A DNA stretch of 64,000 nucleotides from Lophium mytilinum (lineage: Eukaryota), in NCBI GenBank assembly GCA_010093605.1, contig MU004191.1, positions 1,100,816 through 1,164,815 on the forward strand, written 5' to 3'. The position numbers and the translations under genes were made by a program. Positions 470 to 36,354 of the stretch are shown piece by piece (positions within the stretch are counted from its first letter, which is position 1; every line of letters begins with the position of its first letter). The notes below the pieces were generated by a model. It searched no databases. It had not been told where the DNA came from and saw only the letters and a program-made list of their open reading frames with translations.

Positions 470-3400
470 CTACTCTGCTGTGTCACTCACTCTGTCAACA
501 GGATCCTGCTGGTCCGCTGCCAGTAAAGACGGGCTCTCTGCCGGAGCACCTCGCTCCGTATATCCCCTCGGTTCGATCTGCGGCCGGCGCGGGGTGTTCC
601 CGGTCGACGGCGTGCTTGGATTTATATTGACCTCTGGGCCCATGTGGTCAATCGCATTTCTATTCTGGATGGCGTTGTGTTGTTGCTCTAGGAGAGCACC
701 GCCAAGGGTCGCACATCGAAGGATGGTCTGAATGAGTTGATTTTGTTTCAGTGGTTTGGAAAGATAGTCCTGAGCTTGATTAGTATCGATGTTGTCCCTT
801 AACCAAGATGGGTATAACTTACATCCATCTGTGCCGCAAGACATTTCTCACGATCACCAACCATGGCGTGTGCAGTCAATGCTATGACTGGAGTTGGGGA
901 TAGACCGCTCTCACGTTCCCATTCTCTGATCTTGGCTGTTGCTTCAAAGCCGCCCATGACAGGCATCTGCACGTCCATCAGAACGACGTCATATCGTTTC
1001 CTTTGAATATGCTGGAACGCTTCCAAGCCGTTGTTTGCCACAGTCACCGTGTGGTGGTACTTCTCTAAAATCTTCACAGCCAAGCGCTGATTGACCGCAT
1101 TGTCTTCCGCCAGCAGGATGTTGAATGACTTCGAGTGGTCGGATATAGATGGTGCAGCGCGGCCGTCAAGTGCTGGAATAAGCGCATTGCCTAGATCGAT
1201 TGGTAGACAAGGGGTAGTCATGTAGCTGGAAATGCCGTCCTCCAATGCAGATTTAAGACTGATCGATACGCGAGGCGTCACCATGACTAGAGGGATATAC
1301 TTAAATCTTTCAGCCGCACGTAGCTGTCTGGCAGTGATGTCGCAGTCAACAATAACGCAGTCATAAGCGACACCGGATGGCGTCTTCATGTCCATCATAG
1401 GAACATCTTCGGCCCTGTTGACGACATGCGGGATAAGATTCAAGGCTTTGAGGTGACTGACTACCTCGTCTCCACATCCAGTGTTGCCTTGGTCAACGAA
1501 AAGGACAGTGTGCTTGCTGTAGGGATTGAGCTGAGGTTGTATGGCAATCAGATCTGAGCTTCCAAGGCGGACCTTGCAGGTGAAATAGAACGTGCTGCCC
1601 CTGCCATAGTCGGAGGTAACCCACATATCACCACCCATGAGGGTCACCAGGCGTCTAGAAATGGATAGTCCAAGACCGGTTCCACCGAACTTTCGAGTGG
1701 TCGATCCATCGGCTTGCTGGAATGTGTCGAAGATAAGATTGAGCTTATCTCCTCGGATGCCAATACCTGTATCAGATACGGCAAACATGAACATATACTG
1801 ATCGGCGCCGCATGCAACCTGTGATGCCATAGAGATAGCAACCTTGACTTCGCCAGTCTCGGTGAATTTGATTGCGTTTCCAACGAGATTCAGAATAATC
1901 TGTCTCAACCTAAACGAGTCTCCCACGACGTAGTCAGGAACAGTGCTGTCAACTTCGTAGGCGAGGTTAAGTTTCCGCTCGTTCGCTCTTGAAGCCAAAG
2001 ACTTTAGGGCATTGAAGATAGTTCCACGCAGTGAGAACGGAATTTCTTCCATCACCATCCGATTAGCCTCGATCTTGCTGATATCGAGGATGTCGTCAAT
2101 GATGGTGAGGAGCTGGCCTGCAAGATTGTGTACGATGGTAAGCATCTCGCGCTGCGCGTGCGTGAGGTCGGTATCCAAGGTAAGCTGTGTCATGCCAATG
2201 ATCCCGTTCATGGGCGTTCGAATCTCGTGACTCATGTTTGCGAGGAACTCGGATTTCGTCTTGTTGGCCAACTCGGCAGCTTCCCTCGCGGCGGTGTTCC
2301 TCTGGATACTTTCTCGCAGACTGGACACCATCTGATTGATTTTCCTCTTGAGCTCGTCCATTTCTCCAGATGCTTCCACAGTGATTTGGGTAAATTTACC
2401 CTCCATAGCGGCATTGGTGATGTCGCCAAAAGCGCGAACCTGAGAGGTAAGATTCTGCGCCATGGTGTTGACATCAGTCGTAATCTCTTTCCAGCGGCCG
2501 TCAATGTCTCGTACATCGGCCTGCCCGCCCATCTTTCCATCCACACCCACATCTCGGGCCACACGCTTCACGGCCAACGACCAATCGTCCAGACGCGTAA
2601 CCATGTCGTTAATGGTATCTTTCAGCAAGCGTATTTCTCCTTCTGCGTCCACGTGTACACGTCGCGTCATATCTCCCTTGGCGATAGCTTGTGTGACCTC
2701 AGAGATACTCCGTACCTGAAGTGTGAGATTTTGCGCCATAGTGTTGACGTTGTCAGTCAAATCTTTCCACTTGCCTTCAACGTTTTCGACTTGTGCTTGG
2801 CCCCCAAGGATACCATCAGTGCCCACCTCTCGGGCAACCTTGCTGACTTCTTGGGCAAACGTGTTGAGACGGTCCACCATAGTATTGATGGTGATCTTCA
2901 GGGACAGAATCTCTCCTTGAACTTCTGCCTTGACTTTCTTGCTAAGATCGCCCCTTGCCACGGCTGTTGTGACCTCGGCAATCTCTCGCACTTGGGTGGT
3001 AAGATTCATGGCCATGCCATTGACGTTCTCTGTCAAATCTTTCCAAGTGCCTTCAACTCCATGCACTGTAGCTTGCCCACCAAGCCGACCTTCCGAACCG
3101 ACCTCGCGGGCGATTTTCGTGACTTCGTGGGCGAATTGTTGAAGTTGATCAACCATGGAGTTGATTGTTTTCTTGAGTTCCAGGATCTCGCCTTTACACT
3201 CCGCTTCCACTTTCCGTGTTAGATTACCTTGCGCGACAGCCGTAGTAACCTGAGCAATGTCTCGCACTTGCGTGGTCAGATTGGACGCCATAGCGTTCAC
3301 GTTGACGGTCAGATCGTTCCACATGCCCTTCACGCCCTCGATTTGGGCTTGTCCGCCGAGGACACCCTCCGTTCCGACGTCGCGGGCTACTCTTGTAACT

Positions 3401-4522
3401 TCTGTCGCGAAAGATCGCAGTTGGTCCACCATGGTGTTTATCGTTTGTTGGAGTTGTAGAATCTCGCCGCGTGCAGGTCTTTCAATTTTACGGCTCAGAT
3501 CTCCGTGAGCTACAGCAGTAGTTACGACGGCGATCTCGCGCACTTGCTCGGTCAGATTTTTTGCCATGACGTTCACTGCAACCCATTAGCTTGAAATTGG
3601 TTCAACATGGTGCTAAGACCTTACCGCTATCAGTCAATTCGGCCCAGATACCATCCACACCGGGAAGATTGGCCTGGCCACCAAGACGACCCTCGGTACC
3701 GACTTCTTTGGCGAGGAACGTAACTTGGCTGGCGAAGTCTTGGAGCTGGTCTACCATTTTGTTGATGGTGCGTTTGAATGTAGTAATTTCGGGGTCCATT
3801 TCCTTGGCGTGTATCAAAACCTTTTTGCTCAGGTCGCCATTGGCGACGGCCGTGACGATGTTACCAATTTCTCGGAGAGCCTTCTGGAAAGCGAGATTGG
3901 CTTGCTGGTGCTTGCCTAGCTCCCGCTTGAGAGCGCCAATGTCTTCGATGCCATGTCCAAATGCAATGTCCTGGTTCTTCAGCTGCTTGTTCACCTCCTG
4001 GCTGAGGTTGTCGATGTGGTCGCGCTGGTTCTTGATCTGGTCGGCCTGCTTGTTGAGGTGGTCTCGGAGGTAGCCGAGCTGCTCCTCGGTGAGCGCTGCC
4101 GTGGCCGTTTGCGACTCGCCATTGCTTGACTCCTTCGCCGACAGCCAGTTGGTGACCCAGCTGGCACGCTGCTCCTTGAGCGAGCCCGATATCCGTCGTG
4201 CTATGGGCCCTGAATTCCGAGACGTGGGCGTCGGCCCTTCATTGAGGAAGGACGATGTGGTGGGCTCGCCAGGGGTTATGGGAAAGTTGCGGTTGTTGAC
4301 CGTCGAGGCCTTGGCTTCGAGGTACTGGATGCGGGCGGCGAGCGCGGTGAGCTCGCGTTCGAGGGCGCCTTTGTCGGCCGAGTCGGGGCCGGGCAGCGAG
4401 ATGCTCGCCTTGGAGCCGTTGGCGGCTATCTGGCCGGGGAAGGATGCATCGACTACAGGATCGTGCTGCTTGGCGAGGTTCGAGATGATGTCGACCAGGG
4501 CCGAGGAGCTGTCGAGAGACAT
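470..4522 (-). CDS. NIK1: Group III hybrid histidine kinase (poly-HAMP, HisKA, HATPase, receiver), osmosensor and dicarboximide/phenylpyrrole target
   Basis: Five ~92-aa GGQA HAMP repeats plus a truncated sixth; H-box [17 protein letters not shown]-box [11 protein letters not shown] boxes DTGIGI and GGTGLGL, receiver [10 protein letters not shown]...DYLSKP. Exons 4522-3625, 3575-823, 769-470; GT-AG introns 3576-3624 and 770-822 join the ORFs in frame. Confidence 0.97.
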
Positions 4523-6465
4523 CGCGGCGCGGAGAGGGCTGCGAGCTCTATGCGGGCATTGGTGAGAAAAGGAGTGTAGTGCCGGCTGTGAGGTATGTCT
4601 AGTTCTATAGGCGGTGACGGACGGGAACGCGACACTGACAGCGCAGACAACTGAAGTCTGCGGATGGTGGGGAGGAGGCTGCGGGCTCGTTGCAAGGGAT
4701 CGTGGTGTCCAAGGTTCCCCCGCTGACTGACCGCTCGATGGTTACAAAGTTGGCACGGCGGCAACTTGCGCGGAACGGGTCGACTCGGACGACACGAGGC
4801 GCGGGACTGGCAGCAACGGGGCGGCAAAGTCTTCACGATGTGCTGGTGCAGAGGTAGAGAGTGCGGGTGCGAGGCAGAGAAGGGGTGAGGGCAACGGCAG
4901 CCCGTCTGGATAGGGCGATCGGCGATAAATTCACATCCATTACTAGCAAAGCGCCCGTCCACGGCACCGCTTGGCCATGCAAGCCGGTGGCGCTCTGGGG
5001 CTGGCGATGAGCGGAGAGGCGCCGTTGGCCTTTGTTGCTGCCCCCGCCGCTGCTGCGTATAAAGACGCGTCAAAGGCGTCCGAGGAGCCTAAATAGCATC
5101 TTCTTTATGCCCTGCCCTGCCCTTCACCACCGCTGTCCGGGAGGAGGCTGCGCGTGAGGGCGGGTTCCACGCCTCAGTGGCCCAACAGTGCCATCTCCAC
5201 ACCCGTCACACCAATTGCGACAGCCGATGACGTCGGTCCGTGCCAGGCCGGCCCGTGGAGAGCTCAACACGGCATCCGGCCTCTTGATATCAGAAAGCCC
5301 ATTTCAGGAGTATGCACAAGTTACAGCCTGCACGCCGCCCCTGGCCCCAGCCGTACCCGCGGTGCTGCTGGCAGCCGTTGTGCGCTGCAGGCGGCCTCCG
5401 CTGCATCTTCTCGTCCAGCTGCAGCGTGGCTGCATGACGGCGCCAAGCAGTGATGTGCTCGTGTATGAAAATGAGGCCCCGTGCGAGTGATTCAGAGGGG
5501 GGCGGCAGGCGGGGCGTCGGGCTGGGAGTGGTGAATCGCGCCCGAATCAACGCAGTCGGGGCATGCCTCATCTCCTGCAGTGCGGATCGAACAGCCGCGA
5601 GTGTTTCGACCATCCGATGTTTCGGCTGTGGTGAAAGGAGAGGTCAGCGTGGTGGTACGGTTTTAAGATGCCGTGCCGATTTCACCCCCACATGGCTTAG
5701 CGCCGTATCGCTGGAAAGGCTCAGGGTCTTTTTAGTGGAACTTAGCACGCTTAGTGAACCCATCGCCTGGCCTGCTGACGCGGGGCTCCCTCGAGGAATG
5801 CCGCTGCAGGAAGGCTTGAACTATTTAATATTGCGACAGCGCTATTCGCTCTTGCGAGCCGACTATTCTGTCCTATACAGCCTCATTGCAGCACTGTTAT
5901 AGGCGACTTGGCATATCACCAGGGAGGGAGGTCGTCTGACCTGGGTGGGTGGGGGCATCCTCAACTCCACGCCATGCAGCGTAGACAGGTGGATACCGGA
6001 GTATGCCAACCACAGCGGGAGCTACTCCGACCTTCCTCCGTCGCCACGCTTACCTTTAGTTGCATGTTCAACCTTGGGACAGCGTTGCCCAGCGGTGTGG
6101 AACACGGCACTGTGACAACGCTGTGCGGCTCCGATCGACGGCTTGCCTCACGATACCAGGCCGATACCAGCCGTCAATCCCAGTATTGGGGTCACATCTA
6201 AGGCCGGTCGTCAAAGATATTGACCTACTGATAATCGAACAAGCTTTTCAGTGTATGGGTGGCAGCGGTGAGCTGTCTGGCATTCTAAGCTTCATTATGT
6301 GAACTTCCGATGTATGACAGGGGGACAAGTGTTTAGCGATAACGAGTGCTAGATTTGGAAATACATCCTCATCATTATAGATATGAGAGCTACACGATGT
6401 TGGGGGTGTAATGTGATCCATATTTTCTAGCCCATAGGCCCTTCATCTCAACGTCACTGTATGCT

Positions 6466-22901: not shown

Positions 22902-24788
22902 TTCCTTTATCCAAGCACATTCGAGACTCACTCCAAAGAAAAATAGATAGACGCTGTGCACTTAACTATGCAGTCCTCAACTCAAATGTAAACTTGGCAT
23001 CATAGGCCTCACCCCTATGATCATCATCGCCAGTCGATACGTGCTATTTCACAAGTTTTTCAATCCGCACACATCTGAAAACGAGATCAACCTGATGCTA
23101 ACTTACAGTTACTGGACGGTGTTTCCTCTTACATTGCCGGACCACCACACCTCTCCTATATTGACGCCAAAGCCCAGCTGATAATGTCCCGCATAGCTAG
23201 GACCAACCATCTCAATAAAGGCGTTGCCAGCCTTGGTGTACCACCAGACATTCTTTCAACCCCCGGACTCTCACTTCAGCTCAGCTGTAGAAAACGCAAG
23301 ATCTTCAAATTTACAACTCAATGTCTCTCTGCCACTTTACCCACGATCTCTCAAACACCGCCAGAATGCACAAGAAACGAGATTCATAACGCTCACCAAA
23401 GACCGTCCTGAGAACAAGACCTTGGTTTCATCAGCTTCGGGATGATGCGTACTGGAGGATCAGGTTCAGTCGCAAGCACGGGATAGAAGAGATTAGGGCG
23501 GTAGATGGAGAATGGGGAGTGGACAATGATCACAGCATCCGATATTATCGAGGCTCGAAATAGTGTTATTATGCGAAGCAGCCAGCTCTGCCTTTGGAAC
23601 TCTTACCAACGCTCGAAAGTGAGGCTCAGCCCTAGAATCAACAACTAGAATATCAGATAATACAGCAGCTGAAAGCATCGAGGTTGGCCATTTATTGAAA
23701 ACGGTGCTAGGTCACTCAAACCAGTATCGAAATGCTGAACGAACGGCTACGAAAGCAATCCATCATGACGCTATGTTTTCTCTATACCGGCTGAGTATTA
23801 CTGGGACGAGATCTCCTTCTAGCCTGCACACAAGGTCCTACGACCCACACTTCGTCTCCGTCCTAGATGCCGGAGTCTTCACGGTCCTTCCTAGATCTCC
23901 ACTAGAGACGACGACGTGGTGGACGATGAGGTCGATACGGCATCTAACTGTGTAAGTAAGGGGTCTAATAGCAGCTAGAATCTTCCAGCGTGTGGGTTTC
24001 ATAGCTTCGAAGAGCCGGGACAACCTCTCTTTGCAGGGTTCCAGAGTGCGATTTCCCCTATACACGACTCGCACCACGAACGCAGCGGAAACCTCTGCCA
24101 ACGATAACCCCAAAGATGACGATGGATTCACCAGAGATGCGCACGTGCTTTCGTGCAGCAGCTCCGGGTCTTCAGACTACTTCACCTAACGCCTGAAGCT
24201 GACGCCCACTGCTGACAGTCCTCGGATTTTTCGTAAGAAGTTTCCACATCACGGCCTCGACTCGGGAGACAGTGGGTGTCGACTTCGCGCCTCAGTAAAG
24301 TACCTTTGACATCTGCGCCTTCGGAGTACGATTCCACCAGACCTGCATGTTCGCAAACCGATGGGTTTCAGGATCTTACCCATGTCTTTATTCGGGTCGT
24401 TCTATCCATTTCAATGAGCTAGCAGTACGACTACCGCGGGACGGCTGGTGTCAGGGGCGCTTTCTGCGGGGTTTACGGCATGGAAGGGCCGATTTGTAGA
24501 TAAGACCAGAGCACAGCAAGGGTAGAGGAAGAGCGCTCAGGAGGTACCGACTGATAGTGCGGCTGGGCCTTAACACCCTGCGCGCTTTCTTCTATGACTC
24601 AGATTATACTAGAAGATGTAACCGATCATAACGCGTTCTAGGTTTCTGGATATTGGGCACGGAGTGAAGGTACTGGGGAAAGTGAGCCGGCTTCGTAGCT
24701 ATTTGGTAGTAGTAGTATTGGAAGAAGGCGTATTGGAATGGGCCGTTGCGGTCCTGGTTCTGGAAGCAGAGAGAACTTAGGGTTTGTT

Positions 24789-25060
24789 GGGAGTAATGGG
24801 AGTAATGGGAGTAATGGGAGTAATGGGAGTAATGGGAGTAATNNNNNNNNNNNNNNNNNNNNNNNNNNNNNNNNNNNNNNNNNNNNNNNNNNNNNNNGGA
24901 GTAATGGGAGTAATGGGAGTAATGGGAGTAATGGGAGTAATGGGAGTAATGGGAGTAATGGGAGTAATGGGAGTAATGGGAGTAAAAGCAGTAAATACAG
25001 TAATGGGAGTAATGGGAGTAAAAGCAGTAAATACAGTAAAGGGAGTAAAGGGAGTAATGG
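24789..25060 (+). repeat. (GGGAGTAAT)n 9-bp minisatellite with degenerate 3' end; spans an assembly gap
   Basis: Perfect units on both sides of the N run 24843-24897; degenerate units AAAGCAGTAAATACAGTAA at the 3' end. Confidence 0.95.
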
Positions 25061-26513
25061 CAGATAGAGTAACAGTAACATACTAAGGTTTCGAGGGGAT
25101 GTAAGTTGAGGGTAGGCTTCCCTTACCTTTAAGAAAAGTAGCAATAATTTTGACTAAGAAGATGTGATTCCAGGAAGACCTGTAGGTGTGGAGGCTTGTA
25201 TGGAAGCTCTACGGTAGGCTTGTTTTAAGTTTATTAGAAGAAGTAATAACTTGCTACGTATTTGTGCAGATCTTAGTGAAGCTCTATATGATTCATATAA
25301 AGGGTCCTTTCAGGTACATGTACATGCTCTTCAGATATGTTTATGTGCGTTTCTTTTGGGTGAAGAATAACGTGAAGCCATGCTGAGAGGACTTCAGAAG
25401 GTGGCGCCGTGATGCGCGGAGGGGTCGTTCTAGTCGTGGACGATCACTATCATTGGGTCACGTAGCATTCAAGCTGGCTTCCACACCTCTAGTACAGCGA
25501 GTCTTGAGCAGGGCTTCAAGTTTAGTTGGAGCATCGCCAAAGAAGTGGCACTTTGGACTCTCGGTACACCACTCAGAGCAGTAATAGTACAGAGTCCGGA
25601 AATGACTGGGTTTATTATCTTCATTCCGATTTCACGCTTTCTGCGAATTGGATCCAGATTGTGGTGAGAAACTCATATAAAGGCATGCGATCCGAAAGTT
25701 TCTCCTGGTGATGGTAAGAACACGCAAGGTAAATACACCATTGTGTAGGTCGGATATGGAAAGACATCGTTGCGGTTTGGCAGGGAGTTGACACCGTGAA
25801 GTCGACGAGAGTTTCTTCTACATTTCAACAAGAAATATGCTTAGGTTGAGAGATACATGAATACCAACCTTGACACCCCTTCTCAGAAGAAGAACTATAC
25901 CCGTTGACACTTCAATCCGTGAGTGAAATCAACGCACACGATATTTGACCGAAGGCTCTTCCCTCGGCTGGCTACGGCGGAAGCTCAATGGTGATGGCCA
26001 AGGTAAAAGGAGGCATGAAGTAGGCAGAATGTGAAGCAAAGGAAATACATATATACCTAGTGCATAGGATGGATGACTGTAAAGTCTATGTCCTGAAAGC
26101 CGATGTCTTTCATCTGAAGCTGGAGCGCTGGAAATTTATCCTCAATTAGCACCATGACCTGAGCAAGAAGGTCCGTGTAACTAGTTACAAACAATCTAAA
26201 CTTGGTATTCAAGCCAAAGTGGAAGAAGCGCTCCTCTCCATGCAATCCCATAGAGACTTGGATGCTAGTGATAGTTTTGTCGTAGTGTACGGAGAGTAAA
26301 CTGGTTGCGGACGACCCCTGGAAGAACCTCGCCGCTATGACCCTCCAGGCTGGGGACCCTTGGACCCTTTCGGGAGCCCTGCAGCTGTTTGTGTGCAGGT
26401 GTTCGCGGCGTTAAGTTGCACCCAATCAGCGTCGTTCATATGTACGACAAGGGCGCTTAGTACGCCAGCGGCCAGCGTTTATGCACGCAGACTTGAAACG
26501 CTCTATTTAAATC

Positions 26514-26525
26514 TGCGGCACAGCA
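26514..26525 (+). promoter_or_regulatory. Cluster-shared 12-mer TGCGGCACAGCA, copy 1 (upstream of GT25-a)
   Basis: Exact match just after TATA-like TATTTAAA (26504-26511); identical copies at 29532, 30530 (reverse) and 35018. Confidence 0.6.
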
Positions 26526-26590
26526 CATGGCAGTCTCCGGGCGGTTTCTGTTCTCAGCGGCGGTACGGTAATGTCACTTCTTAACGATAT

Positions 26591-27894
26591 ATGATGGCCT
26601 GGCGCCTGGCACAGCGTCTGTTCCAGTTGAGTGGTGTGAGGATTATGTCGACGATGCATTCGAAAGGTGTACCTGAGGTGCGCCTTACTGCTAAACACAT
26701 TCGCTATGGTTCATTTGCTCTTTTCATCGTCTTCGTCTGCAGTCTAGGCCTCTGGTCTGATTCTATTCTATTTCCACTACATAAACTCGCTCCTATTGCT
26801 GCCAGCCTCGAGCTCCCAGCCAACTCTACACTCGGCTTCGGCGCTTTACTCGCTGTCTCACCAGCAACCTCCCCACGCCGTCATGGTCTTATACAAGCGG
26901 CAAACGTCACGGACATGCAGATCACTTTCCCTGAGTTGCCGATCTGGACGGATGAAGATGAGCAGAACTTCAGGGCTCCAACTGGTGTTGGAGAATCGAG
27001 TCTTACGAAAGGCATGGTGTTTGCGTGGCTGAGCCATCTACATGTGCTGAGATGGTAGGTGGTTTTCTCCTTGCCTGACCATAATCGCTCACAGTATTTA
27101 GGTTTTTGGAGTCTGGCCTAGAGACTGCTCTTATCATGGAAGATGATATGGACTGGGACATACATCTCCGGACCCTTCAGGTTCCCCGAGTCGCCGCGTC
27201 GATCCGTTCGCTATTTAATCAAACCAAGGATCCATCCCTTTACTACTACGGCGACCTCAATCGATGGGACATGATTTACCTTGGACATTTCGACCGCTGG
27301 AGCTGGCTAGGAACAGATATTGGTGTTGGCGTCCTGGTCCCATCAAATCTCACAGACCACCCACACCGATTCATCCCAGATGACACCATGCCGCCGCGTT
27401 ACGACATGCATCCAGAAATGGCATCTGTCCTTACAGCTCTGGACGTGCCCCCAAACACCCGGATCCTGCATCCCTCCAAGTTCCCCTTCGGTAGTTGGGC
27501 ATATGCTGTCACCCGAGAATCCGCGGCTCGAATTCTCTCAGATGATGTGGCAAGCGCGGCAGCCCCAAAATGGGCATCAATGGACTCGCTGGACAATGCT
27601 TTGTCACGGGCTTGTGGGGGCGGAGCGCTGCGATGCTATACCGTCAACCCCGAAATCTTCCATCACCTAGAGGGTCCGAAGAACTCCCTGATCGACTACA
27701 ATTATGATCGTACGGAGAAGTCCAAGGCTGTGATCAACCAAAGGCTTCGTACAGGGGAGACAGATCACATTCGGTGTGGATTCGCAAGTGGGCATTTTGA
27801 GTATGGTAATGATACGAAGTTCTTGAAGTACCTCCGAACGGAGGTGGGAAGGAAAGGAAGGTGTTTGAAGCCTGGTCGTGAAGCTCCTAAATGA
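26591..27894 (+). CDS. Glycosyltransferase family 25-like (GT25-a), type II membrane protein
   Basis: N-terminal TM helix (FALFIVFVCSLGLW), PANSTLGFGALLAVS, WLSHLHVLRW, ALIMEDDMDWD (DXD), AYAVT, VNPEIFHH; intron 27055-27101. Start may be 26591, 26645 or 26654. Confidence 0.88.
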
Positions 27895-28366
27895 TGGAAG
27901 ACGCACTTGTGTATTATTAGTTATACTAGAGGATCAAGATAGATGCCTGGCGACCAAGGTTGCACATTTGAGAATTGTCTGCACCGCAAGCATTAGAGCT
28001 AAGAGAGATAGCTATGAAGCATCATAGTGAATTTGAAAAGAAAAATCGTTCAAAAGGTATCTCTGCGTGCATACATCCTTGCTCCCCCTTCTAATATGAG
28101 AGCATCAGTTATATCTACATCCCAAGATTGAAACGCCAAACTCCCCACCGAGTGACTCGTTGGGACTATCTCGGAGCGTGAAGCGCTGCTTCGCCGCCTG
28201 AAGGGAATCCGAAGGAGGATTTCTGCGTACCGGTCGCGCTTCGATACTAGCTCGAGTAAGGTGCACAACAGAGTATCCACATGGCTCTCGTACTCACTCA
28301 GCTCGTACCTACGCGTGCTGGCACGACTTCAACTGGATTGAAGTCGTCAACGGGTTTGTGACAGCT

Positions 28367-29469
28367 TCACTCTTCTTTGGGGCCAGGTCTGGGACCCATA
28401 CAGGTCACCAGTTGCTTGGACCGCGAAACGCTGTTGCATCTAGCGCTGTGCCAGATATTGTCCGTCATTTCCTTTTCGAGAACGTCTTTCTTATCTTCCG
28501 ACGGTCCGTTAATAAGGCTGTCCTTCTCTCCGGCAATCTCGTGATGGTGAAAGAGCTCTGGGTTGACACTGATGCAGCGTAATTCTTGTCCCTTGCAACG
28601 AATGTGTAGCCAGATGTCGAAGCCTTCGGAGCCATGATCATCGCGCGCTAGGATTTTCTTTGCGCCCTCCGCAGTGATCGCGTATGCGTATGTACAAATG
28701 GGTCCGGCAGAGTAGTGTATCCAGCGGATGTGTTTCGGATCAGGCGACACAGCCCCCTCCCAAGAGTTGATGTACGGAGGTACTGTGGGATCCGCAAGAG
28801 TTATGGGCTTCGGGTCGTAGACAACGTTCTCGCCACAGTGGCCCAGCCACAGGACGTCCCATTCCGTCCCATATGGAGGCAGGTGGAATGTTGGCTGCCC
28901 AGGTTCTTGAGAAGGCTTCTTGTATCGCGTCAAGTTTCGTACCGCCTCCGCTATTATTGGCATCTCCATCCTGATCCCCACGTCCCAATCCGCGTCATCT
29001 TCCAGTATGAGGGACGTCGCGTGTGTTGCGGCTGTTTTTAGGGCGTTCAGATGGCCGAGCCAAGACAATGCGCCCCCCTTCGACATCTGGTGTTTGGCTA
29101 TCATAGCACTTGTGTCTTTATCTGTCCACGCCGGCTGAACGGGAATCTGGATCTTGAGGCCAGTGTACGCAGCGGCTTTGAGTAAGCCATCTTTTCGCCA
29201 TCGGTATCGTTGAGGAGCTTTTGGGGGCGCAACCGCGAGGAGCGCTGCAAACTTCGCCAGGTTAGGGTCAAGAATATATACTTCTGGGAAATGGAAGTAC
29301 GCACTCCTAATGTCGCATTGCCGGCGCCATAGTCCACGATTCTAGGAGTCCAGAAGCCATTCGGATGGAAGCGCTGTACCAAGAAAATCGCGTTGCACAA
29401 CAACAGAGCAGCAATCAAGAACTTTGCGCGAAAAGGATTCAGATGAGGGAAAGATATCATGGTATACAT
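28367..29469 (-). CDS. Glycosyltransferase family 25-like (GT25-b), type II membrane protein
   Basis: TM helix KFLIAALLLCNAIFLV, GNATLG|FAALLAV (intron 29252-29304), WLGHLNAL, LILEDDADWD, WDVLWLGHCG, PICTYAYAI, VNPELFHH. Start 29469 or 29460; the frame is open back to ATG 29580. Confidence 0.9.
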
Positions 29470-29531
29470 GCGACGCAAAGACAAGAAATGGTACAAAGTG
29501 GCCTCATCGCGGGCCTCCACGATGACTTGAA

Positions 29532-29543
29532 TGCGGCACAGCA
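29532..29543 (+). promoter_or_regulatory. Cluster-shared 12-mer TGCGGCACAGCA, copy 2 (upstream of GT25-b)
   Basis: Exact match about 62 nt upstream of minus-strand ATG 29469. Confidence 0.6.
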
Positions 29544-30529
29544 GAGTAGGTAGTTTTTGAAGCTTGTAGCCTTCATCCATGCTGCGCGATGAGAAATTCA
29601 GCCCAGGGGCTCTCTAGCCGCTGCGTCCAGTCAATGCGCCGCCTGCCAGCCGGCCGCTCATGGATGTAACCGCTGCCGCTAACTTCAAACAAATACGGGC
29701 CGTCGCGCGGGGACCACACCGAAACTCTCTCGCCATATTTCCGATCTGACTTTGTGGAGTGCTTCGCGCATAGAGATATCGGCTTGAGGCACACGAGACG
29801 CCTAGGTACGTTCGACCGCTATGGACGCGGTGTTTCATGTTCTACCCTCAATAAATCCGATTCTCTGCAGCCGACTTGGCGACCTCCTGAGTCCATGGAC
29901 CCCTTGTATCGACACCAGTTGCTGGCTTTCTGTAAGGAACTAGAGCGAGATAGTAGCCGCATGGTGTGATTCGATTAGCTCCGGCTACATCCTCGATGAT
30001 CTTGGCCTCAGGAGAAAGCCAAGGAAGAAACCCGCTTACCCTCGCCTGGAAAGTCTGCCTCCCGGAATCCGGGCGCGTAGCTCGTCGCTGAGGCACAGCA
30101 CGGGTTGTGGAAATCAAGATCAGGAGTGGACCCTCGCATTACCACTGAGAAAGCCGAACGGGACCTTCAAGCCTTGCAAAGCTACCCAGTGATCGTGTTG
30201 GGCAAGCCACGGAGAACATCTCTGACCGTCAACCGTACAATGATCAGTGGGTTGGGAGTTCTAACGATACACGCCGTCCTTGTCTGGGATATGCTGGCTT
30301 TCTAGCCTATTGCTCTTTCTTGCATCAACATATCTCGATCGTTTAGACTGTCCCTGTACACGAACAGTGCCAGCTTCTTCACCCTTCAGCGGCTGTCGCG
30401 TTGGGCGCCTCCATGGACTCTGTGATTGAGCTGCCCCTGTAGCAGAGCTCCGCAAATGCTATACCCATGGCTAATTTTATGCAGCGTGTGGCAAGTAAGT
30501 TTCAAAGTAGCCGCTGCGCCCTGGCCATC

Positions 30530-30541
30530 TGCTGTGCCGCA
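30530..30541 (-). promoter_or_regulatory. Cluster-shared 12-mer TGCGGCACAGCA, copy 3 (upstream of the pepsin-fold gene)
   Basis: tgctgtgccgca on the + strand is the exact reverse complement, about 130 nt upstream of ATG 30672. Confidence 0.6.
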
Positions 30542-30671
30542 CTACCAAGCTCATGGCTACAATCATGGAAAGGTAGGCTGTACGACGGCGAGCGTCTCTC
30601 ATGTGGGCCACTCTCTTCACTGCCTCGTTTTCTTCATTCATTGTGCCAAGTCTCTGTACTTCGCTCTTTTC

Positions 30672-32414
30672 ATGATGGCTGGTACCGGTGTCACCATCAT
30701 GTTGCTTCTACTGTCTTTTTTGTTTAGCCTTCCAATCAATGCGCAGAATTCGAATTGCAGTTTTGCACCTGTCAACCTTCCCATACGACTGGTAGGGCTG
30801 CCAAATCAAGGCTTTACGCGAGGAGCTTACCTTGCGATGGGAACTCCTCGACAGAACTTCAGTGCCTTACCTATGGCGTCAGTAATGTGGTCGACTTAGT
30901 CGAGGAAGAAGTGTGTACTAACTTTTATCAGGGAAGTCAACAACACCTTCGTCTTTCACCATGACGACAAGTGCCAAAAGACCGAAGCGGCGTGCATGAC
31001 GTATCGAGGCGGATTTTTCGAGCCCGAGAACTCCCCTACCTACGTGAACCAGAGTGCTCCCAATGCCAAACTTAATCCCAACTTCGCCAGCTCCGAAAAG
31101 CTCACAGACGGAGGAACCCTCGCCCAGGACCAAATCACACTGCTCGATAACTTGACTATTCCGGACTTTCCATTTGGACTCGTCAATCAAAGTGTCAATA
31201 CCGGAAGACTCTTCAACTCCGTCTCCGCCGGGCTAGCATCTATCGGTCTCGGGAGAAATTCAACAATATTGTCTTCGCTCAAGAAAGCTGGTACTATTGG
31301 TTCGAGGAGCTATGGCTTTTGGTGGGGTCTTGACGGGGCAACAACACCAGCGCAGATGAACGGAAACTTGGTCCTTGGGGGCTATGATCAGGCCAAGATC
31401 AAGGACCTGTCGAAGAACCACACAGACAGGCTCACCTCACCAGGAACCTGCTCACAAGGCATGCTCATTACCTTCACAGAAATCAAACTCAACTTCCCAA
31501 ACGGCTCGGAACCGAATCTCCTAGATCAGTTTATTGGGGGCTATAACCTCCAAGCATGTATCTGCCCTTCCTGTGCGACGGTAATGTCCATGCCTTTGGA
31601 TCCTTACTTTTCTCGCTTCGTGGACTGGACAGAGTCCGTCCCTATCGATCGCTCTGTTGGAATCAACTTCTTCACAATGATGTATGCCGGTGGGACGGCA
31701 TACCAGGGAGACCTCACCTTTACAACGGACGCCGGTCTCTCCATTCGCGTTCCGAACAGTCAGCTAGTTCTCCCAGACCTCACCATTGCGGACGACGGAA
31801 GTATCGCCACCAATACTAGTGTGCAAGACCTCATGATTTACAGTCTTCAAGACGTAAACAAAAATGATATGCCACGTATCGGCAAATATTTCTTCACGGC
31901 AGCTTACTTGCACGTCAATAACGACGCCAACACATTCACAATATGGGAAGCGAATCCGACCACAGATACCGATGTAGTAGCTGTCTTGGACGATGACTTG
32001 GCAAAAGAATGCAACGTCGTCCAGCCGAAGGCCACCCCTATAGAATCCTCTGGATCGGTCCCGAGTAGCACAAGTTCCTCGTCGCCCACTGGAAGTCCAC
32101 CCGCCTCCAAATCGAATAAGCTAGCAGCCGGTGCTATCGCTGGTATCGCCGTGGGATCGGTGGCAGTAGTAGGCCTAATTGCCGTGCTATTGTGGCGGGG
32201 CCACTCCAGACGGAAACAAGAGAGGGCAGATGCAGCTGCGCAAGCCAATGCTGCTCTCAACATTTCACCTCCCTACCAACAAGCTGTGCAGACCCCTATG
32301 GTGGAGATGTTTGGACATGAACCACCAGAGGTGAAAGGGAGCGTGCTGCCACCTCAGGAGCTTTGGCCAGGCAGGCAAAAGTACGAACCGGACGTTCACG
32401 AGATGGCAGGATAA
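30672..32414 (+). CDS. Membrane-anchored pepsin-like (peptidase A1 fold) protein lacking catalytic DTG/DSG motifs
   Basis: Signal peptide, MGTPRQNF, IGLG, LVLGGYD, IGKYFFTAAYLHVNND typical of the A1 fold; Ser/Thr stalk, TM helix GAIAGIAVGSVAVVGLIAVLLW, cytoplasmic tail; intron 30878-30931. Confidence 0.85.
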
Positions 32415-33241
32415 CAAGAATTGGATACGATTGATGTTGATCTACGGGAAGCATGGGCAGAGCCTTTTGCTGCATATCTTTGTTTCTTGAGCGATTGTAT
32501 GATATTATTTGGATACCCGTTATGTCTATAGATATAAAAGTAGAAGACGTGTTTAGATAGTCGCCTAATTGCCAATTCAAAACATTAATTTCGAGGAAAT
32601 GTTCGCTCTCTATGAGCTAACTCGAGAGTGGCTGTTATGCTCCTGATGAACCACCCGGACTTGCAAAACCTGATGATAGTGAGTTCATAAGCTTCCGCGA
32701 AAGCGGTGTTAGACGCTAGATAAGCAACAAGATCAGGTAGCTTCAAGTCCAGCAAAAGCATTCAGTAGATCGCCAATAAAAGGGAGTGAAACGAGCACCT
32801 TCGTGTTGGCGTCCTGAAAAGGCCCTACACCGGTCCATAGGAAATTGTCTTCTCGTCCAAGGTTGCGGCGATGCCCCGTTGCCGCCCATGAGGCACAGCA
32901 GCAGCGGGTCCGAAATGCTAAAATAGTTCTTCGTGCAGATTGGTTCTGAAACCAAAGTCTCGCCCCATGCACCTCTGATACGGAAAGTCCAGGATATGAG
33001 CTAGGTGTGAGCCCCTTACAATGAGCCCTATTAACACTGTTCTGGCACGAAAATCAGCAGTGGGACTCGTAGGAGGTCGATTTAAGATTCCTGTGCTACA
33101 ATCGGCTAGCGCCAGTCCATGACGATCGTCCCGTGACCTTTAATATTACACGTATTTTCTCTACCTCGAACGCATAGATTCTTGAACTTCTTGATATGCC
33201 AAAGCGGTTCTATTGACGCTGGACCTCTATCTATAATTCTG

Positions 33242-34350
33242 TCATTGAAACACTTCCTGGTTTCTACGTCGATCCGGATCCCCAATACGCTGGATGCTTG
33301 AAGATTCAGAGGGCGGTGCCTGGTATATACGCTGGAAGGTGAGATCATAATTAGTCGCCATTCCTGGAGAAGAATGGAGTGATGCAACTTACTTCTGCAC
33401 ATTTACCGAAAACCTCACACGAGCACTCTTCAGCCGCGGGGCAGTAAACAGGCTCTCTACCGAATATGATATGCCACAGATATTCCATGATTCGGCCGCT
33501 GATGTCGTCAACGAGTTCTGTTTCTAGCAGCCATCGGCGGAAGTCCACATAATCATCCAATGGCCGTTTCAGAACCTGGTCTCTCGACACAGCAAACTGC
33601 GCACAGCACGGGGTTGCAATGACGCGAGGCGGCTCTGTACCGTCGAAGAAGCGCTGCCAGACTTCTAGCATATAGCCTTCTACTCCTAGCTCTCCCAGAG
33701 GAGGTTGTCGGAACATCTGCATTTCGTCTGGGCAACCAGGGTTGTGGATGCATCGCAAATTCACGTACCCATTCTTCTGTACGTAATCGATCCTCAGCCT
33801 ATCCAACATGTTCTTTGCCATATAGCCGGGGGCATCGTTATGCCAGGCCTGAGGCCAGCCACCGCGATGACTATGTATAAACGCCATGATTTTTGGAAGG
33901 TTGTGGTAATTATCGATGATGAAGGTGAGGTAAGGCATGGCTTCCTTCCCTTTGTTGGCCGCCGTATGCAAGGTTGAGTTTGCGTCATCCACGGCGTAGA
34001 TATAGCGTTCCCAACTAAATGGGTAAGCCTGAGTGCTCCCCTAAATCTACTGGTGTTGCTTACTCGGGCAGGTCCTCAGCGACCCAATCGATGTCTTCTC
34101 TTGCGAGCCTTCCCATCACGATGGCCTTCTCAGCGGCGACTTTCGGCGCTGCTTTTGGACCTGAGTCCACACTTGTCGGGCGAGCTTTTTGGTCATCTTG
34201 ATGTCCGTGGCCATCACTGTGTACTTGTTCGACAGGTATTGGGGAAGGATTTTCGGGAACTCCGAGACACGTATTTGAGGAACGCCGAATTAAAGCGATG
34301 GCTATAATTAGTAAAAGTGCCACTGCAACCCGAGATGGTCTCACGAGCAT
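33242..34350 (-). CDS. DUF3431 family type II membrane protein
   Basis: N-terminal TM helix; NKGKEAMPYLTFIIDNY, FIHSHR, WHND, GYVNLRC, PCCAQFAVS, SGRIMEYLWHIIFG; intron 34015-34063; probable last intron 33332-33392 (unspliced stop at 33351). Confidence 0.9.
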
Positions 34351-35017
34351 AGTGCAATGGCCTACCGCGAGAAAGAAAACTGTAGGAATCTCATGAGAAA
34401 AAGTATAAAACTAAAGAGTTTCTGATGAACGATACGGCGGAGAAGGAAAATCAAGGAGGGGGGATTGCATGAAAGGACATGGGATGAGCCGAGACATTGA
34501 TGCCGCGGGGATTGTTCAAATACCACGGTTATCCTAAGACTCTCGAAGGCGCAGGGTGATGCTAGAGAGCGGCGCAGTGCGGCACCAGATGCAGTGCAGC
34601 AAAAGCTCTCAGGAACATCGTTGCAAGTAGCGAATCAGAAGCACCCATTCTGCGCATAGGCGCCGACCGCATCAGCAAAAGCCACTCCCGGAGCGATCCG
34701 AGGGTTGGCGAGACTAAACACCTGTTCTCTGGATCTATTTTCTGCCTCGCGGCTCGATCCCCTTCCGCAAGTCGGCAGACCAACATAACTCCTGGAAATT
34801 CCCCACTACTTATGAGAGACGGGCGTCTGCAAGTCTATCTTCTCGTTTGGCGACCATGAGGAGTCTCCCAAGACGATGGATCATAGCCGCCGTCTGCTCT
34901 GTTCCTGTACCGGAACTCCGGCCGGTGGATTGTGGCATGAACAGAAACGTTTCATGTTATCCAGAATAGTACTACGCGCTGTCTATTACCGGATGAGCCT
35001 GTTGGTCTCAAGGGTGT

Positions 35018-35029
35018 TGCGGCACAGCA
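35018..35029 (+). promoter_or_regulatory. Cluster-shared 12-mer TGCGGCACAGCA, copy 4 (divergent DUF3431/GT25-c promoter)
   Basis: Exact match about 66 nt upstream of ATG 35096; a second GGCACAGC at 35054-35061. Confidence 0.6.
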
Positions 35030-35095
35030 CGGGGGGTATCAATACATGCACATGGCACAGCTTTTGAATTCATCATTTCCTCAATCACTCCCATC

Positions 35096-36354
35096 ATGTA
35101 TCCTCCTTACGGAAGCAAAATGCAATTACGTCTCTCTTCTCCCTCGCGGGGATTTGCCGTTAAAAAACCTCGAAATCGTCGACCTATCATTTTATCTGCA
35201 CTCGCTGTGGTTATAATATTTCTTGTATGGTCTCATTCGTACCAAGTCGTACTCTCATTCCCCAACTTCTCTTCGGCGCCAACGACTTTGCCTTCACCTG
35301 CGAACTCCACACTCGGCTTTGGTGCTATCATCGCAGTATCACCACCAAATTCGAAACGACGACAGGGCCTCCTACAGGCAGCCAATGTAACAGAGCTCGA
35401 CATAACCATCCCAGAGCTGCCAATCTGGACCGAGGAAGACGTAGAGCAGTTCCGAAGCCAGCAAGCCCCGACTGAAATGCGGTTCCCGATGATCGCAGCA
35501 TGGATGAGCCATCTGCGAGTGCTTGAATGGTGCGCACAGCACTCTTCACCCTCAAACACCCAAAGCTCACTAACATCTACTCAAGGTTCCTCTCAACCGA
35601 CCTAGAAACCGCAATGATCCTCGAAGACGATATGGACTGGGACATGCGCGCGCGCAGCCTCCAAGTCCCGCGCGCAGCCACCGCCCTGCGCGCTCTCTTC
35701 AACGCCACGCCAGAAGAACCACACGGCTACTACCCGCACCACTCGCACTGGGACGTGCTGTATCTCGGCCACTTCGACCGCTGGGCCTGGTTCGGCCAGG
35801 AGTCCGGCGTCGGCGTGCAAGTGCCCTCCGATCTGAAGGACGCCCAGGTCTTCGCCGACGACACGCTCCCACCGCGCTACAACATGGTACCCAACGTCGC
35901 CTCCATCCTAACAGCGCTCGACGTCCCGCCTCATTCGCGTGTCGTGCATCCCTCACGACAGCCGTTCGGGACATGGGCGTACGCCGTCAACCGGCGCTCG
36001 GCGGCCAAGATTCTCTCCGATGAAGTCGGCAGCCCGCGGGCGCCGAAGTGGGTGTCGGATAGCTTTGATAATACGATGGTGAGGGCGTGTGAGAACGGGC
36101 TGCTGCGGTGCTGGACTGTGTTTCCGGAGATCTTCCACCATCGTGAAGGGCTGCTGACGAGCATGATCAACCTCCCGAATGAGTTCAAGCCGACCAAGCT
36201 CGATGAAGAGCGGCGGAATCGGACTGGCGAAACGGATGGGATAGGGTGTGGATTTGTGAGTGGCGAGCTTGACTTTGGGGACGACGAGGAGAAGTTGGAG
36301 CGGCTTAAAGATGGTGCGAGGAGGGGAGTGTGTATGAAAGAAAGGAGATATTGA
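35096..36354 (+). CDS. Glycosyltransferase family 25-like (GT25-c), paralog of GT25-a
   Basis: TM helix, PANSTLGFGAIIAVS, WMSHLRVLEW, AMILEDDMDWD, YLGHFDRW, WAYAV, PEIFHH; intron 35530-35585 at the same codon and phase as in GT25-a. Confidence 0.88.

Follow-up and report, generated by a model that had tools for sequence, protein, structure and literature searches.

Whether a short DNA word that recurs upstream of neighbouring, partly unrelated genes is the mark of a common regulator is the question raised by a locus of the Dothideomycete Lophium mytilinum. The sequence examined, a stretch of 64 kb which is called the window throughout, contains a cluster of 8.9 kb with five genes, here designated A to E, of which A, B and E code for GT25-like transferases, C for a membrane protein with a pepsin fold and D for a DUF3431 protein. 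A first-pass annotation of this DNA had noticed an exact 12-mer, TGCGGCACAGCA, before four of the five genes and had proposed a shared cis-element read by a factor that acts in trans. Our preferred reading follows this proposal: with a probability of about 0.6, TGCGGCACAG(C/T)A is the putative binding site of one trans-acting, sequence-specific transcription factor that would coordinate all five genes. As far as can be judged from sequence, the idea of a common cis-regulatory element to which a factor encoded elsewhere would bind is supported, by the over-representation of the word, its confinement to the cluster, its unrelated flanks, its occurrence in both orientations and its retention before paralogous genes and in a second lineage; the resemblances to named binding sites that had been put forward alongside it did not withstand comparison.

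Occurrence of the word before the five genes

Four exact copies of TGCGGCACAGCA are present in the window, at 26514(+), 29532(+), 30530(-) and 35018(+), precisely where the first-pass annotation had placed them, and no further exact copy was found. The public run X3 provides spliced RNA contigs identical to the window, with six joints that have GT..AG or CT..AC ends, none of which is seen in run X1, which is DNA; all five cluster genes lie under such spliced contigs, and the distances to the start codon were measured on gene models with RNA-supported introns. The copy of gene A (26514..26525, plus strand) is in sense to the gene and ends 65 nucleotides (nt) before the ATG at 26591, and the copy of gene E (35018..35029, plus strand), equally in sense, ends 66 nt before the ATG at 35096. 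Antisense copies precede gene B, a minus-strand gene (29532..29543, plus strand, 62 nt before the ATG at 29469), and gene C (30530..30541, minus strand, 130 nt before the ATG at 30672), so that the earlier description of copies 60-130 nt before a start codon and in both orientations is right. The claim that four of the five genes carry the motif holds for exact copies; the fifth gene, D, is nevertheless not bare. Antisense to it, at 34578..34588 on the plus strand, stands the partial copy TGCGGCACCAG, which consists of TGCGGCAC followed by CAG, the 8-mer TGCGGCAC (34578-34585) ending 227 nt before the ATG at 34350. The word is hence located 5' of each gene independently of orientation, in sense at A and E and antisense at B, C and D, at 62-227 nt before the ATGs.

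In none of 100 dinucleotide-preserving shuffles of the window was TGCGGCACAGCA encountered, versus the four copies observed. With at most one mismatch allowed, six matches were counted, compared with a shuffle mean of 0.41 and a shuffle maximum of 3. The two matches thereby gained are copies of TGAGGCACAGCA, one at 30089..30100 (plus strand) in the intergenic region of B and C, within the long RNA contig of gene C, and one at 32889..32900 (plus strand) between the 3' ends of C and D, where RNA contigs do not reach. Shorter words show the confinement to the cluster: all six window copies of the 9-mer GGCACAGCA fall within 26.5-35.1 kb, as do nine of the ten copies of GGCACAGC and five of the six copies of TGCGGCAC, the latter with exactly one copy in the 5' region of each of the five genes. 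Before no other gene of the 64-kb window did the k-mer search find the motif.

For a motif found post hoc, its uniqueness is of relevance. TGCGGCACAGCA is the sole 12-mer of the window with at least four copies, apart from words of a 9-nt tandem array and an N run at 24.8-25.0 kb. Enrichment in the three intergenic regions, a check which the first-pass annotation had proposed, became apparent when words were counted blindly in the 5' intergenic regions, three in number and 2,416 nt in total, and compared with the whole window: motif words rank top at every word length k from 6 to 10; seven of the ten window copies of GGCACAGC are inside these 2,416 nt (P 1.2e-8). Within the 8.9-kb cluster, 0.012 copies are expected by chance (Poisson P 8e-10, with the 55 kb of the rest of the window and 699 kb of related fungal contigs as background), and the word is over-represented against chance as well as against background sequence. 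When the 40 nt on either side of the copies were compared, nothing in common was observed beyond the motif; with its flanks unrelated, the element is therefore discrete rather than part of a duplicated promoter. Roughly written, it is TG(C/A)GGCACAGCA with C or G as the next base.

The smaller variants recorded by the first-pass annotation are all present, namely TGAGGCAC at 29785, GGCACAGC at 26608 and 35054 and GCGGCGCAGTGCGGCAC at 34569. The partial variant TGAGGCACAC (29785..29794, plus strand) lies within the long RNA contig leading into gene C. Second partial copies occur near gene A, where the k-mer search identified CTGGCACAGCG at 26606..26616 (plus strand), and near gene E, where TGGCACAGCT at 35052..35061 (plus strand) stands 34 nt before the ATG; the 11-mer CTGGCACAGCG is also found at 28444(-), inside the coding part of gene B. 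TGCGG is kept in all copies located 55-227 nt before a start codon, and the three TGAGG variants stand elsewhere, either in the long RNA contig of gene C (29785, 30089) or in the 3' intergenic gap (32889). A related 12-mer, GCACAGCACGGG, which combines the 3' part of the motif with CGGG, has three copies, at 30093, 33601 and 35022. The one at 33601, inside a coding exon of gene D, reads TGCGCACAGCACGGGG, which equals the gene E copy minus one G, and the other strand encodes Pro-Cys-Cys-Ala.

Retention before paralogues and in a second lineage

Three of the four exact copies precede paralogous genes, and the motif could be conceived as functionless, a relic left when promoters of the GT25 paralogues were duplicated or underwent gene conversion, with chance matches added. 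That chance copies exist is exemplified by the metagenome locus L066, where an exact copy (11256) was found among the 699 kb of related contigs; located in the 3' flank about 130 nt after the stop codon of the GT25 gene and with no gene start near, it is taken as a chance copy. The paralogues are, on the other hand, old (A and E are 52% identical, B is 32% identical to A and 35% to E), and despite identities of 32-52% the exact 12-mer stands 65, 62 and 66 nt before the ATGs of A, B and E, in inverted orientation at B. The upstream regions of these genes are unalignable, and neutral sequence of such age would not keep 12 of 12 bases. Since duplication alone cannot keep all 12 bases in randomised flanks, the retention of the motif before the old GT25 paralogues is taken to imply selection. 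Furthermore, genes unrelated to the GT25 paralogues possess the word, with an exact copy before C and the partial copy before D, about 0.01 copies are expected by chance, and the same word occurs at the same place in another lineage, as described below. A relaxed tblastn search with the five proteins against the window detected no pseudogene or relic fragments between the genes, and an origin from a duplicated promoter or a relic gene was rejected on the grounds that the flanks do not align and that such relics are missing. A relic without function is, in our view, very improbable. The first-pass annotation had argued that paralogy could explain the GT25 copies, if not the one before the pepsin-fold gene; the second half of this argument applies to C and can be extended to D, and the first half is at odds with the GT25 flanks, which do not align, and with the inverted copy at B.

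Metagenome contigs were scanned with an alignment of GT25 homologues, which gave 80 loci of 699 kb in total with a single GT25 gene in each. The products of the closest loci, L001, L002 and L019, are 56-60% identical to E and 52-59% identical to A (longer exon). In each of these loci, TGCGGCACAGTA is found on the sense strand, with its end 61, 61 and 55 nt upstream of the ATG, respectively; it agrees with the motif in 11 of the 12 bases, with distance and orientation as in the window. When the upstream regions of L001, L002, L019, A and E were aligned, the sole run of invariant columns consisted of the ten bases TGCGGCACAG; by our own arithmetic, the chance of a sense-strand match with at most one mismatch within a 20-nt span is approximately 4e-5. 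Footprinting in homologous promoters, which the first-pass annotation had recommended, thus gave a divided outcome, with the element kept between diverged flanks in the closest lineage (these three loci) and absent from more distant homologues. An 8-mer count that tolerated one mismatch found no word common to the upstream regions of 25 lineages, the best word occurring in 12 of 25 versus shuffle maxima of 10-11, and 8-mers of the motif were encountered, again with one mismatch, in only 4-7 of the 25. In the entire 699 kb, matches with at most one mismatch number 8 versus about 3 expected. Conserved in one lineage and at background level outside it, the element therefore appears to be conserved within a limited clade and not across all fungal GT25 genes.

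Among the 80 loci, no homologue of gene C was found and one homologue of gene D (L032), which is not adjacent; in L002, the open frames beside the GT25 gene match no Pfam family. According to database listings, C and D homologues have adjacent locus tags in Coniosporium apollinis and are situated on equally long contigs in Mytilinidion resinicola and Lineolata rhizophorae, and a C orthologue and a GT25 orthologue are on equally long contigs in Lepidopterella palustris. The C and D orthologues of M. resinicola show an identity of 86-87%. The listings suggest that the gene neighbourhood is older than the clade in which the motif is seen and that the pairing of C and D recurs.

Other GT25 clades display conserved upstream words of their own. 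In a more distant clade (L030, L031, L039 and L043), a different 12-mer, GGTGCTGG(C/T)CA(C/T), is conserved about 79 nt before the GT25 ATG (54 nt in L043), and its reverse complement in L039, GTGGCCAGCACC, is similar to the window motif, except that the spacing of GGC and CAGCA is shorter by one base. This 12-mer presumably resembles an Ace2/Swi5-type CCAGC site. In another clade (L005, L006, L009), the conserved element is a palindrome of 15 nt, GAGGCCTGGTGCCTC, at about 30 nt before the ATG; on one strand it contains GGCACCAG, as does the partial copy of gene D.

Position of the word relative to transcripts

The near-constant distance to the ATG, 62-66 nt at A, B and E and 55-61 nt in the other lineage, would also be expected of a core-promoter or start-site-positioning element that marks the upstream border of initiation and helps to place the initiation complex. 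RNA contig 9, which covers A and B, has one end at 26499, which is 15 nt upstream of the A copy, and the other at 29538, within the B copy, and the 5' end of RNA contig 11 (gene D), inferred from record coordinates and bin depths, is at about 34611, 26 nt beyond the partial copy. The B copy and the partial D copy furthermore adjoin RNA-free gaps between divergent transcripts, at 29539-29680 (B versus C) and 34612-34711 (D versus E), and these gaps look like bidirectional promoter cores. Contig ends are, however, a weak hint of RNA ends, and RNA contig 10 (gene C) and RNA contig 12 (gene E) start at 29681 and 34712, that is 849 and 306 nt upstream of the motif, the C and E copies being inside the contigs. 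Equally, both sense and antisense copies of the element exist, and none of the other window genes has the motif, whereas a general core element should be widespread. We consider a core-promoter function unlikely. Given the early contig starts, C and E appear to have either long leaders (about 990 and 385 nt), in which several upstream ATGs occur, or a second proximal promoter.

With the motif located within RNA contigs at A, C and E and, in the GT25 genes, at a constant spacing to the ATG, an action as an RNA leader element near the start codon, where it would control the translation or stability of the mRNA, can be envisaged as well. The motif is followed at both A (26524) and E (35049) by CACATGGCA, which provides an upstream ATG, and ATGGCA is found between motif and ATG in the other lineage too; these upstream ATGs may be those of upstream open frames in the leader. 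Such an element would, however, have to cope with its antisense orientation at B, C and D, the mRNAs of which would carry the complement, with the RNA contig of gene B, which stops inside the motif, and with the variant at 32889, which stands in a stretch without RNA cover. A role in the leader is accordingly given little credit.

Several of these observations weigh against a factor-binding site as well. The constant ATG distance might instead reflect a function in the core promoter or the leader. The RNA contigs put the motif in the transcribed region at A, C and E and, with the partial copy, at D; some start sites, at least, may thus be situated upstream of it, an unusual though possible arrangement for an activator site. 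As the upstream regions of L001, L002 and L019 are 85-93% alike (by eye), these loci represent one independent lineage and not three, and the upstream regions of more distant GT25 homologues (25 lineages) are devoid of the motif. Finally, the partial copies at 26606, 35052 and 28444 keep GGCACAGC without the CGG, which weakens the assignment to a zinc-cluster factor discussed in the following.

The putative factor and the genes of the cluster

On the preferred reading of a common binding site, a factor encoded outside the 64-kb window would bind TGCGGCACAG(C/T)A and coordinate the transcription of five secretory-pathway genes, which code for a DUF3431 protein, a pepsin-fold surface glycoprotein that is probably not catalytic and the three GT25-like transferases. 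The site would act in either orientation near the start of the gene, at 62-66 bp before the ATG in the GT25 genes, and the factor might be a Zn2Cys6 protein that reads the single CGG in an asymmetric site of about 12 bp. The first-pass annotation had stated that no regulator gene lies in the cluster and that the factor would act in trans. This fits our survey of the window, in which a six-frame regular-expression scan for Zn2Cys6, C2H2 and bZIP signatures gave a repeat artefact only and Pfam searches of 25 long frames revealed no DNA-binding family.

Among described factors, AlcR binds the pentamer (A/T)GCGG as a monomer, and Pho7, equally a monomer, recognizes an asymmetric site with a single CGG triplet (PMC6265462). 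The window word is alike in that it is an asymmetric word of about 12 bp with a single CGG and begins with TGCGG, which agrees with (A/T)GCGG and is present in the four exact copies, the partial D copy and the three metagenome copies; such a pentamer is not diagnostic, and no factor can be identified from so short a feature. A difference is that the partial copies CTGGCACAGCG and TGGCACAGCT share the rest of the word without the CGG. Relatives of AlcR or Pho7 were not encountered, though no search was aimed at them. By analogy, a single-CGG zinc-cluster (Zn2Cys6) protein is a plausible guess for the putative factor.

The two resemblances named in the first-pass annotation, to Crz1 and to Ace1/SltA sites, fail against the exact copies and against those of the other lineage. 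The Crz1 element is given as GNGGCKCA in Saccharomyces cerevisiae and GDGGCKBNB in Trichoderma reesei, with cell-wall genes among the Crz1 targets (PMC9604740). GCGGCACA of the window word fits seven of the eight positions of GNGGCKCA, but the K position is an A in all copies of the window and the other lineage, the exact copies have a C where the T. reesei form requires D, and conservation of the window word spans 10-12 bases, beyond the Crz1 core. A Crz1 site was rejected, as the core GNGGCK needs G or T at position 6 and all copies read G(C/A)GGCA. The SltA/ACE1 site is AGGCA (PMC3698166). AGGCA is contained in the window variants TGAGGCAC at 29785, 30089 and 32889, whereas the exact copies, the partial D copy and the copies of L001, L002 and L019 read CGGCA; this site was likewise rejected, AGGCA occurring in these three variants only, none of which is within 580 nt upstream of a start codon. 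Among the papers listed in literature searches for GGCACAGCA and CGGCACAG, titles and abstracts pointed to no described fungal binding site.

Islands of one factor site across the promoters of co-regulated fungal gene clusters are a familiar arrangement, as for AflR in the aflatoxin and sterigmatocystin clusters, and underlie the idea of the CASSIS predictor. As in such islands, the window word is short, is repeated, in either orientation, 5' of neighbouring genes and seldom occurs beyond the cluster. In contrast, the present cluster consists of transferase-like and surface-protein genes without a secondary-metabolite backbone enzyme and without a regulator gene in the window, and its word is asymmetric with a single CGG and not an inverted pair of CGG/CCG or TCG/CGA.

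The three GT25-like genes encode proteins of 418 (A, 26591..27894, plus strand, intron 27054-27100), 349 (B, the paralogue on the minus strand, 28367..29469, intron 29252-29304) and 400 (E, 35096..36354, plus strand, intron 35529-35584) amino acids, the last annotated elsewhere with 392 amino acids from the ATG at 35120. The GT25 label of A, B and E is taken from database names; the product of gene A is identical to a 418-amino-acid protein of Lophium mytilinum which UniRef names glycosyltransferase family 25, and the names of such identical database proteins assign the window to this species. Against PF01755 (GT25), gene E reaches 17.2 bits versus a cut-off of 24, and gene A and the second exon of gene B give no match. 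A profile of nine GT25-like homologues matches procollagen galactosyltransferase 1 chains at an E-value of 0.02 only, and an invariant EDD.D.D stretch is present in the GT25-like proteins.

Gene C (30672..32414, plus strand, intron 30878-30931) codes for a type I membrane protein of 561-562 amino acids, the start codon being supported by orthologues of 553-560 amino acids, with a signal peptide, a Ser-rich stalk, 11 N-glycosylation sequons and a membrane helix near the C-terminus. It matches PF00026 (Peptidase A1) with 27.5 bits (cut-off 19.9) and is annotated elsewhere as acid protease. The catalytic D[TS]G motif is found neither in the 561-amino-acid protein nor in an 87%-identical orthologue, so that the product is probably a non-catalytic membrane or surface glycoprotein which has the pepsin fold without protease activity; some more distant homologues retain one D[TS]G motif. 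Gene D (33242..34350, minus strand, introns 33332-33392 and 34015-34063) encodes a protein of 332 amino acids that matches PF11913 (DUF3431) with 268 bits (E-value 6.5e-80). At the N-termini of A, B, D and E, a long hydrophobic stretch resembling a membrane anchor was recognized by eye.

In the surroundings of the cluster, genes for a CDC20-like WD40 protein, an Nsp1-like nucleoporin, a group III-type histidine kinase and a nitrilase-family protein are located. The hybrid histidine kinase gene (799-4741, minus strand) encodes a group III-type protein with repeated HAMP domains along with HisKA, HATPase and receiver domains, and a match to 10 of the 12 motif bases occurs at its 3' end (827, minus strand). 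The tandem array at 24788-24990, about 1.5 kb to the left of the cluster, consists of the 9-nt unit CCCATTACT and is broken by the N run at approximately 24843-24897; the DNA contigs of X1 are interrupted there, with many loose ends mapping to the array. Five copies of the 10-mer CGGCAATCTC are present, always on the plus strand (2976, 21557, 28531, 42084, 50489), in partly coding and partly intergenic positions; four of the five share one more base, forming the 11-mer TCGGCAATCTC. Their flanks are unrelated, and the post hoc significance of this recurrence is borderline.

A more comprehensive proposal, which we regard as doubtful, combines these elements. The word would be the operator of a conserved 'glycosylation island' of GT25-like transferases, a DUF3431 protein and a dead pepsin-fold glycoprotein as possible substrate; it would be read by a dedicated single-CGG zinc-cluster factor encoded elsewhere and, placed at the upstream edge of initiation, define bidirectional promoters. 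In such a scenario, the operator would predate the duplication of A and E and would later have been recruited by unrelated neighbours.

A factor site shared across clustered genes is a known principle, and the gain consists in a new instance with an unusual, non-metabolite gene set and not in a new mechanism. To our knowledge, the co-regulated gene clusters of filamentous fungi have been little mapped except for those of secondary metabolism, and we know of no role assigned in these fungi to GT25-like, DUF3431 and inactive pepsin-fold proteins. The conserved word of 10-12 bp would provide a handle for capturing the regulator, and a scan of the genome with it would lead to the remaining members of the regulon. 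Equally, it would allow testing whether the membrane proteins of the cluster act in one glycosylation pathway.

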